Shown piece by piece: positions 2,835 through 52,341 of a DNA stretch of 64,000 nucleotides. Position 1 is the first letter of the stretch; each line of letters begins with the position of its first letter. The DNA is from an uncultured Chloroflexia bacterium (lineage in GTDB: Bacteria > Chloroflexota > Limnocylindria > Limnocylindrales > CSP1-4): contig CAVTHS010000002.1 of NCBI GenBank assembly GCA_963734535.1, positions 192,001 to 256,000 of the forward strand. The letters run 5' to 3'. The translations under genes and the position numbers were made by a program. The notes under the pieces are model-generated. The model was not told the DNA's origin, did not search any database, and saw only the letters and a program-made list of their open reading frames with translations.

Positions 2835-3386
2835 ATGTCGCGTATCGGCCGCCAGCCTGTCCCCGTGCCCGCGGGCGTCGAGATCGCTCTCGATGGACCG
2901 GTCATCACCGTCACGGGCCCCAAGGGGACCCTGACCCGCTCCCTCCCGGCCGCGATGACGGTGGAGACGGGCGAGGGGAGCCTCCTCGTGACGCGCCCTT
3001 CTGACCTCAAGCAGCACAAGCAGCTCCACGGCCTGACCCGCACGCTCATCAACAACATGGTCGTGGGCGTCACGACCGGCTACCGGAAGAGCCTCGAGAT
3101 CACGGGCGTCGGCTACCGTGCCCAGAAGATCGGCGACAAGCTGCAGCTCAACCTCGGGTACAGCCATCCCGTCGAGATCGTGCCGCCGGACGGCATCAGC
3201 TTCGAGGTCGAGACCCCGATCAAGCTGGCCGTCCTCGGCATCGACAAGGAGCTCGTCGGCCAGGTTGCCGCCCGCGTCCGCGCTACGCGGAAGCCGGAGC
3301 CCTACAAGGGCAAGGGCGTTCGCTACGCCGGCGAGGTGATCCGTCGAAAGGCCGGCAAGGCCGGCAAGATCGGCGGAAAGAAGTAA
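2835..3386 (+). CDS. rplF: 50S ribosomal protein L6
   Basis: MSRIGRQPV...[11 protein letters not shown]. Confidence 0.98.
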
Positions 3387-3402
3387 CGGAAGGACGACCA
3401 CG

Positions 3403-3765
3403 ATGACGAAGGCCGCCACGCGCGGCGCCGCCCGGCAGAAACGGCACGAGCGGATTCGCCTCCGACTGGAGGGGACGTCCGCGCGGCCGCGCCTTGCGGT
3501 CTATCGCAGCCTCAACAACATCTATGCACAGGTGATCGACGACGCCGCCGGTCGCACCCTCGCCGCCGCCTCCTCCCTCGAGCCCGAGCTCAGGGGCGGG
3601 AAGCAGACGAAGGTCGACGAAGCGAAGGTTGTCGGGCGCCTGGTCGCCGAGCGGGCCCGAACCGCCGGGGTCGCGCAGGTTGTCTTCGATCGGGCCGGGT
3701 ATCGCTACCACGGCCGGGTCAAGACGCTTGCCGACGCCGCGCGCGAGGCCGGTCTCGACTTCTAG
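3403..3765 (+). CDS. rplR: 50S ribosomal protein L18
   Basis: [20 protein letters not shown]...[12 protein letters not shown]...GLDF. Confidence 0.98.
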
Positions 3766-47830: not shown

Positions 47831-47891
47831 GAGTCGGCCCCGGACCGGTCCTCCGGACCGTGGGCGCGCATCGTGCCCGGAGCCGGCACTG

Positions 47892-47920
47892 CGTCCCAGC
47901 GCGCGGGGCGCGCTGGGACG
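47892..47920. terminator. 13-bp hairpin between the PPOX gene and glyQS
   Basis: CGTCCCAGCGCGC-GGG-GCGCGCTGGGACG; no U-tract. Confidence 0.45.
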
Positions 47921-48015
47921 AGGCGTCCCGGGGGCCACCCGAACGTCTGGTACGATCCGCGGGACCGTCCTCCCGTCCGCGCATGCCACGCGCGGGCCCC
48001 TCGTGGAGCTGCCCC

Positions 48016-49434
48016 GTGACCGAACCCCAGCCCGACCCGAACGCCGTCGCGCCTTCCGTCGCGAACCTCGACGTCATCGTGAGCCTGGCGAAGCGCCGCG
48101 GCTTCGTCTTCCCCTCGTCGGAGATCTACGGCGGGATCAACGCCGTCTGGGACTACGGGCCGCTCGGTGTCGAGCTCAAGAACAACGTCAAGCGCGCCTG
48201 GTGGCGGGCCATGGTCCAGGAGCGTGACGACGTGGTTGGCGTCGACGCCGGGATCCTCATGCATCCGCAGGTGTGGGTGACCTCCGGCCACGTCGGGTCG
48301 TTCAGCGATCCGCTCGTGGAATGCGCCTCCTGCCGGCGACGCTACCGGCTCGACGAGCTGCCCGGCGCGGAGGAGCTCAGCCAGACCGACATCAAGGACC
48401 CGGAGATCGTCGACCGCCTGAAGCTGACCTGTCCGGCCGACGGCGGGAAGCTCTCGGCGCCGCGGCGCTTCAACCTGATGTTCAAGACGTACATGGGACC
48501 GGTCGAGGACGAGGCGGCGATCGTCTACCTCCGCCCGGAGACGGCCCAGGGCAGCTACGTCAACTTCAAGAACGTGCGTGAATCGACCCGCAAGAAGCTC
48601 CCCTTCGGGATCGCCCAGATCGGGAAGAGCTTCCGCAACGAGATCAGCCCGGGCAACTTCGTGTTCCGGATGCGCGAGTTCGAGCAGATGGAGATGCAGT
48701 ACTTCGTCCGGCCGGGCGAGGGCGCCGCGACCGCGTTCGAGGAGTGGCTTCCGAAGCGCATGGCCTGGTACGAGGCCTACGGCGTCACTCGCTCCCGCCT
48801 GCGCTTCCGCGAGCACGCGCCCGACGAGCTGGCGCACTACGCGAAGAAGGCGATCGACGTCGAGTACCGGTTCCCATTCGGCTGGAAGGAGCTCGAGGGG
48901 ATCCACAACCGCGGCGAATGGGACCTTGGCAACCACGCGAAGGCCTCCGGCGAGAACCTGGAGTACTTCGACCCGGCGACGGACGAGCATTTCATCCCCT
49001 GGGTCGTCGAGACGGCGGCCGGTGCCGATCGCGCCGCGTTCACCTTCCTGATCGATGCCTATCGCGAGGAGGAGGTCCGCGGCGAGAAGCGGGTCGTGCT
49101 TGGAATCCACCCGGACCTCGCGCCGTACAAGGTCGCCGTGCTGCCGCTCCTCAAGAAGCGGCCCGAGATCGTGGAGCTGTGCCACCGGATCAAGGACGAT
49201 CTCAAGCGGCAGACGATGGCCGTCTACGACGACACGGCCGCGATCGGCAAGCTCTACCGCCGCCAGGACGAGATCGGCACGCCGTGGTGCGTCACGGTCG
49301 ACGTGGACTCGCTCGAGGACGGCAACGTCACGGTCCGCGACCGCGATGCGATGACGCAGGAGCGGATCTCGGCCGGCCAGGTCACCCGTTACATCACCGA
49401 CAAGCTCGACGAGGCGCGGCCCCGGGGCCTGTAG
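48016..49434 (+). CDS. glyQS: Glycine-tRNA ligase, homodimeric (alpha2) type
   Basis: KRRGFVFPSSEIYGG, YLRPETAQG, GKSFRNEI, REFEQME, IGKLYRRQDEIGTP. Confidence 0.97.
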   Translation: MTEPQPDPNAVAPSVANLDVIVSLAKRRGFVFPSSEIYGGINAVWDYGPLGVELKNNVKRAWWRAMVQERDDVVGVDAGILMHPQVWVTSGHVGSFSDPLVECASCRRRYRLDELPGAEELSQTDIKDPEIVDRLKLTCPADGGKLSAPRRFNLMFKTYMGPVEDEAAIVYLRPETAQGSYVNFKNVRESTRKKLPFGIAQIGKSFRNEISPGNFVFRMREFEQMEMQYFVRPGEGAATAFEEWLPKRMAWYEAYGVTRSRLRFREHAPDELAHYAKKAIDVEYRFPFGWKELEGIHNRGEWDLGNHAKASGENLEYFDPATDEHFIPWVVETAAGADRAAFTFLIDAYREEEVRGEKRVVLGIHPDLAPYKVAVLPLLKKRPEIVELCHRIKDDLKRQTMAVYDDTAAIGKLYRRQDEIGTPWCVTVDVDSLEDGNVTVRDRDAMTQERISAGQVTRYITDKLDEARPRGL

Positions 49435-49537
49435 CCCAGCGCCGGGCAGGTCTCCCGGGGGAGCGGCACAGCGCGGTTCGAGGTCCGGGCCACGAAGGTC
49501 GGTCGGCGCCGGGGCGGACCTGGCGCCCGTGTCGGCA

Positions 49538-49737
49538 CGCGTAAGGACGCGATACGCGACGCCGACGAGGATTCCCGACGCGGCATCGCGCGTACGCGCT
49601 GGGTACGCGGCAACGGCCAGGATTCCCGAACGTGGCATCGCGCGTAAGCGCTGGGTACGCGGCAACGGCCAGGATTCCCGACGTGGCATCGCGCGTAAGC
49701 GCTGGGTACGCGGCAACGGCCAGGATTCCCGACGTGG
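49538..49737 (+). repeat. Left tandem array, 51-bp period
   Basis: Unit AGGATTCCCGACGTGGCATCGCGCGTAAGCGCTGGGTACGCGGCAACGGCC at 49568, 49619 (52 nt) and 49671, partial at 49722, and a degenerate copy upstream. Confidence 0.95.
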
Positions 49738-50477
49738 ATCCAATTCGACTCGGCCGCTCGCTCCGCGTCATCCGGCGCTCGCGCGGACTGCGGCAGCTCG
49801 ACGTCGCGAAGGCTGGCGGCGTCTCGCAGACGCTGGTCTCGGCGATCGAGCGCGGCCATGGCCAGCATGTCGCCGTAGCGACGCTGGCGCGCGTGTTCGC
49901 CGCCCTCGACGCCGACGTCGAGCTCGTGGTGCGCTATCGCGGCGGGACGCTCGACCGGTTGCTCGACGAGCGCCATGCGGCGACAGTCGCAGCCGTGATG
50001 GCCACCCTGGGCGCACGCCGGTGGTTGACCGCCGCCGAAGTCACGTTCAACCATTACGGCGAGCGTGGATCGATCGACGTCCTGGCGGTCCACCCGGTCG
50101 CGGGCATCGCCCTCGTCGTCGAGGTCAAGACCGAGATCACCTCGGCCGAGGAGACGCTGCGCCGCCTCGACGTCAAGGTCCGCCTCGGGGCCGGGCTCGC
50201 GCGGGAGCGGTTCCGCCTGCCGGTGACCCGCGTCGTTCCTCTCCTCGCGGTCCTCGACTCCACCGCCAACCGAAGCCGGGTCTCGCGTCTCGCGCCCCTG
50301 CTCGATCCTGCGTTCCCGAACCGATCGGCGGACCTGCGCCACTGGCTCGCGAACCCAGCGACGGCGCCCGGCGGGCTCCTTTTCGTCCGGATTTCGCGCG
50401 GTAGTGCTGGTGGTGCTGGTATGTCGGGATCGCACCGCGTTCGACGGCGGGTCACCGTTGTCGCCAGCCAGCCCTGA
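49734..50477 (+). CDS. XRE-type HTH fused to a PD-(D/E)XK nuclease-like domain
   Basis: LRVIRRSRGLRQLDVAKAGGVSQTLVSAIERG (HTH); AEVTF...GSIDVLAVHP...LVVEVKT (E..D..ExK). Confidence 0.8.
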   Translation: MDPIRLGRSLRVIRRSRGLRQLDVAKAGGVSQTLVSAIERGHGQHVAVATLARVFAALDADVELVVRYRGGTLDRLLDERHAATVAAVMATLGARRWLTAAEVTFNHYGERGSIDVLAVHPVAGIALVVEVKTEITSAEETLRRLDVKVRLGAGLARERFRLPVTRVVPLLAVLDSTANRSRVSRLAPLLDPAFPNRSADLRHWLANPATAPGGLLFVRISRGSAGGAGMSGSHRVRRRVTVVASQP

Positions 50478-50529
50478 GCACGAATCGGGATTGGAGGGCG
50501 GGCATGAAGCCCACGATGGCATCGCGAGC

Positions 50530-50731
50530 CGCGCTTACCAGCACCGGGGGTGCTGCCGCGGGCGGGATGGGGACAGTCGGCGCGCTTACCAGCACCCGGA
50601 GTGCTGCCGCGGGCGGGACGCGGGCAGTGGCGCGCTTACCAGCACCGGGAGTGCTGCCGCGGGCGGGATTGGGACGCCGGCGCGCTTACCAGCACCGGGA
50701 CTGCTGCCGCGGGCGGGACGCGGGCGCGCGG
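50530..50731 (+). repeat. Right tandem array, four units of 50-51 bp
   Basis: 38-nt core CGCGCTTACCAGCACCGGGAGTGCTGCCGCGGGCGGGA at 50530, 50581, 50631 and 50681, each followed by a 12-13-nt variable linker. Confidence 0.95.
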
Positions 50732-50774
50732 CGCGCGGCGCACGCCACCAGCCGCGGCCCGCAGACGTCCCGGG

Positions 50775-52341
50775 TCAGCCCCCTGGGGTGGTTCCGGCCG
50801 TTGCCGCCGCCGGGGCGAGCGACGCCGCCGGGGCGAGCGACTCGTCCGTGGGTGGGTACTCGCCGCGCAGCCACGCGTCGACCGACGCCGCCGCGCGCTT
50901 GCCGTCGCCCATCGCGAGGATGACCGTGGCCGCCCCGCGCACGATGTCGCCGCCGGCGAAGACGCCCGGCAGCGACGACATCCCGTGCTCGTCGGTGACG
51001 ATGTAGCCGGCCTGGTTGAGCGCGAGGTCCGGCTCGGATGCGGTCAGCAGCGGATTGGAGCGCGTCCCGATCGCGACCACGACCATCTCGCAATCGATGA
51101 CGAACTCGGAGCCCTCGATCGGGATCGGGCGGCGCCTGCCGGACGCGTCGGGCTCGCCGAGCTCCATCCGGATGCAGCGGAGACCGGTCACCCAGCGGTT
51201 CTCGTCGGCCAGCACCTCGAGGGGCGCGACCTGCAGCTCGAAGCGGATTCCCTCCTGCTCCGCGTGGTGGACCTCCTCGGCCCGGGCGGGGAGCTCGGCC
51301 TTGCCGCGCCGGTAGACGATCGTCGCCTCGTCCGCGCCGAGCCGCTTCGCGGTCCGGACCGAATCCATGGCGACGTTTCCCCCTCCGACCACGACGACCC
51401 GGTGGCCCTTGAGGACCGGCGTGTCGGATTCGGGGTTCCAGGCGCCCATGAGATTGACGCGCGTCAGGTACTCGTTGGCCGAGTAGACGCCCTTGTAGTT
51501 CTCGCCGGGGACGTTCATGAATACCGGCAGGCCGGCGCCCACCGCCAGGAAGACGGCGTCGAACCGCTCGCGCAGCTCCCGCAGCGTGTACGTGCGCCCG
51601 ATGATCGCGTTCGTCTCGATCTTCACGCCCGACGCCACCAGCCGGTCGACCTCCTGCTGGACGATGTCCTTCGGGAGCCGGAACTCGGGAATTCCATAGA
51701 TGAGGACACCGCCGGCCGCGTGGAACGCCTCGAACACCGTGACGTCGTGGCCCTGCTTCACGAGCTCGCCGGCCGCGGTCAGGCCGGCCGGCCCGGAGCC
51801 GACGACCGCGACCGAACGACCCGACGACGTCGGCGCGTTGGCCTTCGAGCGCGTCAGGGTGCTCCATCGCCCAGTCGGCCACGAAGCGCTCGAGGGAGCC
51901 GATGGCGACGGACGCACCCTTCTTCGAGCGAACGCAGCGACCCTCGCACTGGATCTCCTGGGGACAGACCCGGCCCGTCACGCACGGGAGCGCGTTGTCG
52001 TCGAGCAGCGAGGCCGCGGCGCCGTCCATGTCCCCGACGCGGAGCCGCTCGATGAAGAGCGGGATGTTCACCCGGACGGGGCACCCCTCGATGCAGACCG
52101 GGTTCTTGCACTGGAGGCAGCGCTCCGCCTCGAGCATGGCGAGCTGCTGCGAGTAGCCGAGGTTCACCTCGCGGAAATTGGCCGCGCGCAGGAGCGCGTC
52201 CTGCTCCGGCATGTGGCTCCGGTCGATGGTCATCCGCTCCTTGGGGGAAAGCGGGTGGTCGAACGCCGGGGTGAAGGTCGGGTCGCCGAGGGCCGCGTCC
52301 GGTTCCCCCATCCCGGAGGCCGGGGTCGGCTGGTCCGTCAT
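50775..52341 (-). CDS. nfnB: NfnB/SudA-like large subunit (GltD family) with apparent +1 frameshift near 51843
   Basis: RCLQC..CIEGCP, GRVCPQE.QCE in one frame; GSGPAGL, YGIPEFRLP, GGGNVAMD, FAGGDI in the next; ATGA-coupled to nfnA. Confidence 0.85.

Follow-up and report, generated by a model that had tools for sequence, protein, structure and literature searches.

A controller-like helix-turn-helix fused to a predicted PD-(D/E)XK nuclease domain, between an amplified promoter module and a dispersed palindrome repeat, in a Limnocylindria genome

The controller (C) proteins of restriction-modification systems, among them C.AhdI, C.BclI, C.Esp1396I and C.PvuII, are small stand-alone helix-turn-helix (HTH) proteins that are encoded beside an endonuclease and a methyltransferase and that use paired palindromes as their sites. 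As described in PMC2632904, they are commonly leaderless, with the site located 17-18 nt before the start. Here, we analyzed a 64,000-nt stretch of Limnocylindria DNA (the window, positions 192001-256000 of contig C2 in the source genome, labelled G000; 14 contigs, 3.2-Mb, 72% G+C, 89.9% complete), in which a 247-residue open reading frame (ORF; 49734..50477, plus strand, GTG start) joins a C-protein-like HTH to a PD-(D/E)XK nuclease-like domain and is bracketed by two tandem arrays. Our preferred interpretation, which we hold with moderate confidence, is that the locus represents a self-contained cassette, in which the fusion protein regulates itself from an amplified, leaderless box promoter and a dispersed palindrome repeat lies behind the gene. 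C proteins provide the best structural and sequence matches for the HTH. The ORF would share with them a self-directed site upstream of its own start, a probably leaderless mRNA and a short fixed spacer (~20 nt here), and in both cases control is coupled to a PD-(D/E)XK nuclease. In contrast to the C proteins, however, HTH and nuclease domain are here part of one 247-residue polypeptide, the neighbors are glyQS and nfnB with no methyltransferase or separate endonuclease gene (12 neighbor representatives scanned), the boxes are direct repeats 11 bp apart, and the module can be amplified into arrays.

We compared the protein to known families and structures. The N-terminal domain (residues 5-65; 49746-49928) is an XRE/C-protein-like HTH that is recognized by the Pfam models HTH_31 (33.5 bits, cut-off 27) and HTH_3 (31.2 bits, cut-off 23), and HTH_3/HTH_31 matches are present in 44 of 44 relatives. 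These matches and the coordinates agree with the initial annotation, which had placed a 247-residue ORF with an XRE-type HTH and an E..D..EVK motif between the convergent genes glyQS and nfnB. The start at 49734 is favored, as most of the 150 library relatives listed have their own N-terminus at residue 1 of the query or only a few residues away from it. An AlphaFold2 (AF2) model (predicted local distance difference test score (pLDDT) 91, predicted template modelling score 0.72) consists of three parts, the XRE HTH and an alpha/beta domain plus a long linker helix that joins them; the C-terminal tail of the ORF is of low confidence in this model and is poorly conserved. The HTH fold matches C.AhdI, HigA2 and HipB with Z-scores of 10-11.4, the value for C.AhdI being 11.4 (root-mean-square deviation (rmsd) 1.8 over 63 residues), and the top PDB sequence match of the ORF is C.BclI (E 1.7e-10).

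The alpha/beta domain (residues ~80-222; 49971-50399) can be superimposed on several PD-(D/E)XK nucleases: Upx (9wuf; Z 10.0, rmsd 3.0, 116 residues aligned), the XisH-family protein 2okf (Z 9.8, rmsd 2.9, 112 aligned), AF1548 (1y88; Z 9.6, rmsd 2.4, 104 aligned) and NucS/EndoMS (2vld; Z 9.0, rmsd 3.1, 105 aligned). Together with Can2 (8bao), these enzymes share the core fold over ~100-127 residues (Z 8.4-10.0) and the E...D...ExK catalytic layout, and Foldseek adds matches to the R2 endonuclease, SduA, XisH and PfoI. The predicted catalytic residues are Glu-102, Asp-115, Glu-130 and Lys-132, each of which is retained in 149 of 151 aligned sequences. In a separate 44-sequence alignment, Glu-102, Gly-112, Asp-115, Glu-130, Lys-148 and Arg-150 are invariant and Lys-132 is found in at least 90%; His-81, Lys-148 and Arg-150 are conserved alongside the catalytic set. 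The modelled fold and the motif together indicate that the C-terminal half is a PD-(D/E)XK domain with an intact predicted active site, as had been suspected from the motif, and we infer from this that the protein is a nuclease. Its identity to the enzymes listed above is only 12-16%, however, no family profile reaches threshold, and none of them carries an N-terminal XRE HTH followed by a long linker helix. The function of the HTH-nuclease cannot be transferred from this likeness in fold.

A homodimer model scored 0.54, as compared to 0.24 for the best of three controls, with at least 85% contact agreement between runs and a partner pLDDT of at least 73. Of 30 proteins solved as same-chain pairs, 20 reached the mark, as did 1 of 23 solved as single chains. 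The model, which was built from our own alignment and whose pass may reflect likeness to solved XRE/C-protein dimers, supports a homodimer formed via the HTH (interface residues 43-69). It is also conceivable that the protein is an ordinary XRE-family transcription factor, in which the nuclease-fold domain serves only in oligomerization or ligand sensing and which regulates neighboring or distant genes by way of the boxes described below. Relatives are indeed annotated only as XRE-family regulators, the HTH is canonical, the modelled dimer interface lies in the HTH and not in the nuclease domain, and box-bearing palindrome arrays elsewhere in the genome could represent further targets. Against this, the four catalytic residues are retained almost without exception, as are His-81, Lys-148 and Arg-150, and the gene is patchy, often frameshifted or lost, fast-evolving and adjoined by no conserved functional partner. 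We regard this explanation as the least probable of those considered here.

In the left array, the 51-bp promoter module of the gene itself has been amplified in tandem, with three recent copies and one old. Tandem Repeats Finder (TRF) reports 3.3 copies of a 51-bp unit (96%; 49568..49737, plus strand), and a five-unit alignment adds an older, diverged copy (unit 0; 49520..49570, plus strand) that carries the boxes GCGTAAGGA and CGATACGCG. The unit contains box 1 (GTAAGCGC), box 2 (GTACGCGG), the hexamer AGGATT, a 7-nt spacer and GTG(G). The fourth base of the ORF is the last of the array, whose final copy supplies promoter and start codon. In this promoter-proximal unit, boxes 1 and 2 (49695-49702 and 49706-49713) are direct, ~11 bp apart, and form a putative operator/promoter element (49695..49713, plus strand). 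Box 2 ends ~20 nt ahead of the start, and a -10-like hexamer (AGGATT; 49722..49727, plus strand) is located 6-7 nt ahead of the GTG.

The same arrangement is found throughout the family. In 57 distinct upstream regions anchored at their starts, direct boxes (approximately G-A/G-T-A-A-G-C) occupy positions -38..-32 and -27..-21, with T/A/A/G peaks at -37..-34 and -26..-23, and are followed by a cAnnnT hexamer at -12..-7 (A at -11 in 63%, T at -7 in 70%). A hexamer in this position leaves no room for a ribosome-binding site before the family starts, and the ORF mRNA is probably leaderless. A box matrix applied to 25 loci outside the training set found 4.9 sites per kb at threshold 8 and 4.3 at threshold 9, as compared to 0.79 and 0.33 in control intergenic regions of G000, where sites scoring at least 10 occur at 0.08 per kb. 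Most of the matches in the 25 loci are on the sense strand, at about -40/-39 and -29/-28. These findings together show a two-box promoter architecture that is conserved family-wide and that resembles that of restriction-modification controller proteins. Consensus scans for sigma-70 promoters and intrinsic terminators returned 0 and 0 sites, and the promoter reading hence rests on family conservation. We also considered the word GRTAAGC as a general promoter element and rejected it: with 72 sites in G000 it is rare, and it is no more enriched in non-coding DNA than composition-matched words.

The initial annotation had pointed out an inverted 8-mer shared by the two arrays. Our counts confirm it: the 64-kb window has 6 copies of GTAAGCGC, all of them within the arrays, 2 on the plus strand in the left array and 4 on the minus strand in the right one (0.74 expected; 0 of 100 shuffles reached 6, where copies within one array are not independent). 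By our estimate, the chance that two 50-bp GC-rich units share an 8-mer is ~0.3, and the match carries weight only because this 8-mer is the conserved upstream box of the family. A left-unit 10-mer (TGGCATCGCG) said to recur just before the right array is indeed present at 50517, in addition to 49633 and 49684, but its significance is weak (3 occurrences, 0.56 expected, 3 of 100 shuffles reached 3).

Orthologs differ in how far the module has been multiplied. Those in G003, G010 and L021 have a single promoter module each. In the G004 ortholog, its place is taken by an 11-bp array of a variant box (11.2 copies) together with a 33-bp array. Arrays with an 11-bp period, built from CGGTGAGCCGC (11.3 copies) or GTGAGCCGCGA (5.8 copies) and ending 23-30 nt before the start, are found in other relatives. 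Site geometry of this kind has precedents. The lambda CII protein is an HTH protein whose targets are short direct repeats that straddle the -35 region and are spaced by about one turn of the helix, and plasmid iterons are tandem arrays of binding sites with autoregulation. The likeness to both is one of site geometry alone, and there is no sequence or family relation. As a separate observation, the 51-bp period corresponds to 17 codons, which keeps the GTG in frame with the ORF at 49632 and 49683; starts at these positions would add 34 and 17 residues, respectively (MASRVSAGYAATARIPD repeated).

The right array (50530..50723, minus strand) consists of 3.9 copies of a 50-bp unit (TRF; 87%, or 93% at a 100-bp superperiod). 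Together with the older left copy, this bears out the earlier description of about four units on each side with periods of ~50 bp. On the minus strand, the unit reads CAGCAC-N5-GTGCTG directly followed by GTAAGCGCGCC, such that a palindrome abuts a box. Of the four palindromes (CAGCACC-N3-GGTGCTG), the one at 50539-50555 is exact, those at 50590-50606 and 50640-50656 have one mismatch each, and that at 50690-50706 does not reach the exact form CAGCAC-N5-GTGCTG. The four inverted boxes, GTAAGCGC on the minus strand, start at 50531, 50582, 50632 and 50682 (50531..50689). Summed by hand under the box matrix, the inverted box GGTAAGCGC scores 11.4, which is close to the 95th percentile (11.4) among the training sites. 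From the sequences it is plausible that one protein binds the boxes on both sides of the gene.

The right array is the local member of a lineage-specific, dispersed 50-bp palindrome repeat that we consider young. The repeat has the core CAGCACC-N3-GGTGCTG-GTAWG and a variable remainder; in the individual arrays, the palindrome is followed by GTAAG, GTATC, ATATC or GTACG. Further 50-bp palindrome arrays are found in G000 at C3:359474-359644, C8:363064-363208, C10:285314-285472 and C6:113579-113738, all in intergenic regions of 580-880 bp, two between convergent and two between divergent genes. Arrays like these are also present in G045, G023, G047, G003, G010 and G056, a subclade of the genus, and several have no family gene within 1.5 kb. 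The palindrome itself (with at most 1 mismatch) is no commoner than a reversed control in most genus genomes; the 50-bp tandem form alone marks the subclade. Behind glyQS-linked orthologs, related arrays are present in L021/G045 (49 bp x3.1), L022/G010 (50 bp x2.7), L024/G004 (50 bp x4.4) and L037/G021 (50 bp x2.2), and persist down to 57-60% protein identity. The right array is thus long-lived at the glyQS slot, yet not private to the gene.

REP/BIME elements are extragenic palindromic repeat arrays of Escherichia coli. The right array resembles them in having tandem palindrome-bearing units in the 3' spacer of convergent genes and in being one of a small, dispersed family whose members have a core in common. 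It differs in that its 50-bp units all point the same way, are few per genome and occur only in a subclade of the genus, and the Y1/RAYT transposase PF01797 was not found in G000 (89.9% complete), whereas control genomes gave matches. The RNA fold of the right spacer (50478-50774) has an energy of -160.7 kcal/mol, as compared to a shuffle mean of -161.3 (z 0.12), and gives no structure signal. We further note a 25-nt repeat in the tail of the ORF itself (50397-50421), in which 2.4 copies of GGTAGTGCT end in GGTGCTGGTATG, the core of the palindrome repeat family. It is 72-76% complementary to the right-array units, and its orientation is opposite to theirs.

How might these parts work together? 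An HTH dimer would occupy the two direct GTAAGC-type boxes (-38 to -21), one helical turn apart, and would thereby activate or repress its own transcription, as C proteins throttle a toxic nuclease. Slippage or unequal exchange is the likely cause by which the 51-bp module of promoter, boxes and start would have been amplified, and amplification would yield more boxes as well as extra promoter copies. The right-array units with their strong inverted boxes may allow the same protein to sit on both sides of the gene, and the cassette itself would be old in the glyQS/nfnB slot and would have been lost again and again. Given the control logic, patchiness, decay and fast change of the gene, we infer that the nuclease is a defense-type or addictive enzyme rather than a transposase.

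Several observations weigh against this interpretation. Known C-boxes and symmetric HTH dimers use inverted repeats, whereas the boxes here are direct. Paralogs within one genome share nearly the same box, which could then be a common promoter element or the site of another factor, and the three most distant G000 paralogs are without boxes. Across the family, boxes are barely enriched downstream (1.2-2x), and no family gene or remnant lies beside the other G000 palindrome arrays in a six-frame hmmsearch. The left array is known in this assembly only, and no listed contig from 4 read runs (Logan contigs) spans either array in full. Among the 12 neighbor representatives there is no methyltransferase or other partner by which a lone restriction-like nuclease would spare its host. 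Gene calls and intergenic regions come from our own crude finder, which is based on G+C content at third codon positions (GC3), and the related genomes are non-independent samples. A flanking array on any side is present in 36 of 80 loci from other genomes, and arrays on both sides in 10. In the 61 of these loci where the crude caller found the family gene, 29/101 adjacent intergenic regions have an array, as compared to 13/76 other intergenic regions (odds ratio 1.95, p 0.08). Finally, arrays cluster in repeat-rich islands, which hold two of the paralogs (C6:127907 and C8:88093).

The last of these points also speak for a different explanation, namely that the arrays are neutral by-products of slippage in long unconstrained spacers, with no tie to the protein and with the shared 8-mer a coincidence. 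Arrays are common in this genome (966 TRF rows in G000; 90/1623 intergenic regions), nearby non-adjacent intergenic regions are almost as array-rich as adjacent ones, palindrome arrays occur elsewhere, the shared 8-mer is not rare by our estimate, and the right spacer shows no RNA structure signal. Against this, arrays are found in G000 in 8/16 flanks of family genes but in only 193/5363 control flanks (3.6%; Fisher p 3e-8), or, counted per gene, at 5/8 family genes versus 186/2667. Arrays cover 8-11% of the DNA within 250-500 bp of the gene in the 80 loci from other genomes, and ~1% at greater distance. Periods that are a multiple of 11 account for 11/45 arrays near the genes versus 1/46 elsewhere in the same loci (p 0.0017), and periods of 48-52 bp for 7/45 versus 1/46 (p 0.03); elsewhere in those loci, 32/46 periods are multiples of 3 and the arrays are probably coding. 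In addition, the conserved promoter/box module is exactly what makes up the left unit, relatives have 11-bp arrays of box-like words, a related 50-bp unit is kept behind diverged orthologs, and the right-unit inverted box reaches a score that is rarely seen in control intergenic DNA. The initial annotation had suggested surveying homolog flanks for arrays: enrichment beside family genes holds in G000, whereas arrays on both sides are the exception among relatives. We regard neutral by-products as unlikely, yet as the strongest competitor to the self-regulated cassette.

The ORF belongs to a large, unnamed family, mostly from Chloroflexota (Limnocylindrales), whose members are old paralogs that each sit as a lone gene in a fixed slot. 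An exhaustive profile-free search matched 2001 cluster representatives at E<=1e-3 and 229 at 1e-30, and the members listed are nearly all ~250 residues long. Pfam, NCBIfam, PADLOC and PHROGs recognize the N-terminal HTH alone and have no model that covers the C-terminal domain. Source annotations of the relatives name only an XRE-family regulator, and the ESM Atlas clusters of the family are labelled 'hypothetical protein' and are most frequent in Chloroflexota. Among the papers listed on PD-(D/E)XK/XRE HTH fusions, no title or abstract describes the family, nor was literature on tandem repeats in Limnocylindria found, neither of which proves the family undescribed. Matches are present in 23 of 24 genus genomes, with 1-10 each, and in 0 of 16 genomes (~1.1 Mb) of the sister family; the family is multi-copy. 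A six-frame hmmsearch of the whole G000 genome found eight members and one broken copy, and no pair of these paralogs exceeds 49% identity. The broken copy (C8:533155-533768) is spread over three frames that cover profile positions 5-47, 74-121 and 126-206.

In the 80 loci from other genomes, the neighbors of the family gene are recurring pairs of housekeeping genes. The pair glyQS and nfnB accounts for 12-13 further loci, and other slots involve 2-oxoacid dehydrogenase E2/E1-beta, alcohol dehydrogenase, PmbA/TldD, the NiFe-hydrogenase small subunit and others. The conservation of these slots across loci indicates that each paralog line is an old resident of its fixed slot. No methyltransferase, transposase or integrase was found among the 12 neighbor-cluster representatives scanned. 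In L061, L082, L085 and L090 (~3001-3650), one paralog line is found between the genes for E2 (2-oxoacid_dh) and E1-beta (transketolase-like), on the strand opposite to theirs; these two genes are part of a 2-oxoacid dehydrogenase cluster, usually a single operon. Many close relatives are found on contigs of ~0.9-1.5 kb, which fits short-read assemblies breaking in the flanking repeats, or simply low coverage.

We compared the glyQS junctions of the genus to determine the history of the cassette, a ~1.34-kb insert that reaches from the glyQS stop to the nfnB stop (49435..50774) and contains the ORF as its single reading frame. Among 30 junctions, 7 are occupied by the ORF (G000, G045, G010, G021, G004, and frameshifted G003 and G052), 20 are empty and 3 could not be scored. 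The initial annotation had proposed a comparison of these junctions for empty sites, and with 20 of 27 scorable junctions empty the cassette is a presence/absence polymorphism. In empty junctions, ORF and TRF array are both absent and the two stops are close together (~25-210 bp in the 10 junctions read). Judged by coordinates, G008 is likewise occupied, and G006 and G011 retain fragments. On the glyQS tree, the 7 occupied genomes require 7 changes, and shuffled labels do at least as well (mean 6.4); four well-supported sister pairs differ in state (G000/G023, G010/G056, G003/G002 and G052/G017). The glyQS-linked ORFs form one clade (support 93/95), separate from the paralogs, and their branching and distances are compatible with the glyQS host tree at its resolution (8 orthologs, one flanking gene). 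A loss-only history would need ~13 losses by our count. These data fit a dispensable cassette that has been in the glyQS/nfnB slot since before the genus, with old vertical descent and repeated loss; exchange among relatives via ordinary recombination in the conserved flanks is possible.

Could the cassette instead be mobile? The initial annotation had suggested a minimal selfish or mobile element whose protein binds both ends, or a nuclease whose cut-and-repair cycles expand its own sites. In the first case, the protein would use the phased inverted sites of the two arrays as element ends and would move or home the cassette. Several features would suit such an element. As at Tn7 and Mu ends and at free-standing homing endonuclease genes, several phased site-like repeats lie on both sides in opposite orientation, the right-hand boxes being the highest-scoring, and the array periods (multiples of 11 bp, ~50 bp) fit helical phasing. 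As with homing genes, a lone nuclease gene with a conserved active site either occupies a single conserved intergenic site, together with the whole cassette, or is missing there. Sister genomes differ in state, and single family genes are lodged between housekeeping genes in a number of slots, including one inside the E2/E1-beta pair. However, several hallmarks of these systems are missing here. The region 49400-50800 has 18 inverted pairs, none of which joins both cassette borders, and no terminal inverted repeats; the sole inverted word in common is the 8-mer within the arrays. No target duplication is readable, the empty junctions (~25-210 bp) being too diverged to align with the cassette borders. 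This border search and the neighbor representatives agree with the initial annotation itself, which had seen no transposase, methyltransferase, terminal inverted repeat or target-site duplication at the locus, and we see no pointer to transposition. The low identity among G000 paralogs leaves no recent copies, the slots are conserved across genera, and the ORF tree shows no incongruence with that of the host, whose distances it tracks. The glyQS ends nearest to that of G000 (99%) belong to empty genomes, which means that there is no co-conversion signal. Moreover, the left array is the promoter itself, the right repeat occurs without the gene, and arrays on both sides are seen in a small minority of relatives. 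A mobile cassette with Tn7- or Mu-like ends is improbable in the light of these findings. In a related view, the family would be a new kind of minimal selfish cassette. Its HTH-nuclease would bind phased box arrays on both sides of the gene, and cutting at these sites or close to them would expand the arrays by break repair and would occasionally copy the cassette into empty intergenic slots in related genomes. This would explain the scattered presence and absence as well as the several conserved slots, and we consider it at least as improbable.

One further contig bears on this junction. A 548-nt contig from a metatranscriptome library (run X14) joins a relative's glyQS end (to 49433) to an ORF start (from 49729) by 250 letters that are unlike the 295 bp of the window. 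That relative has a different upstream spacer; DNA carry-over is possible, and the contig cannot show transcription.

The self-regulated cassette would have consequences beyond this locus. By our models, a family that databases label only 'XRE regulator' (at least 2001 cluster representatives) would combine a controller-type HTH with a nuclease whose active site is intact. The locus offers a regulatory architecture that is open to experiment, namely a probably leaderless promoter whose two direct boxes are separated by one turn of the helix, and it shows that such a control module readily undergoes tandem amplification. If the protein throttles itself and serves as a defense or addiction nuclease that does without a methyltransferase, a one-gene system would be added to the catalogue, and the arrays would represent a natural case of a toxic gene being tuned by how many binding sites it has. 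For the annotation of Limnocylindria and related Chloroflexota, the family would account for recurrent short contig breaks and for variable islets between core genes.

The genes on either side of the cassette are convergent. The left neighbor glyQS (glycyl-tRNA synthetase; 47860..49434, plus strand; Pfam tRNA-synt_2b and HGTP_anticodon) is conserved across the genus; the crude GC3-based call puts its start at 47983. The right neighbor is an nfnB/gltD-like FAD/NAD(P) oxidoreductase (50775..51917, minus strand; Pfam Pyr_redox_2), convergent with the ORF, and its homolog in L021 additionally has Fer4_20. An Rfam scan of 49300-50900 (E<=1) found no family, the sole hit being a chance SECIS_3 match within glyQS (19 bits, gathering score 63). 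The 3' coding end of the nfnB-like gene (50805-50841) contains a perfect 18-bp tandem duplication (CGCCGCCGGGGCGAGCGA x2.1) that adds a repeated C-terminal hexapeptide. Elsewhere in G000, the repeat-rich islands mentioned above (C6:108000-128000, C8:87000-102000 and C8:361000-364000) contain many unrelated intergenic arrays with periods of 20-72 bp. Long tandem repeats that are nearly perfect are found at C11:49373-50381 (393 bp x2, 100%), C14:315662-316567 (321 bp x2.8, 91%), C14:6203-6559 (69 bp x5.2, 100%) and C3:140501-140904 (48 bp x8.4, 99%); three of these lie in coding calls of the crude finder and the 321-bp repeat lies outside.

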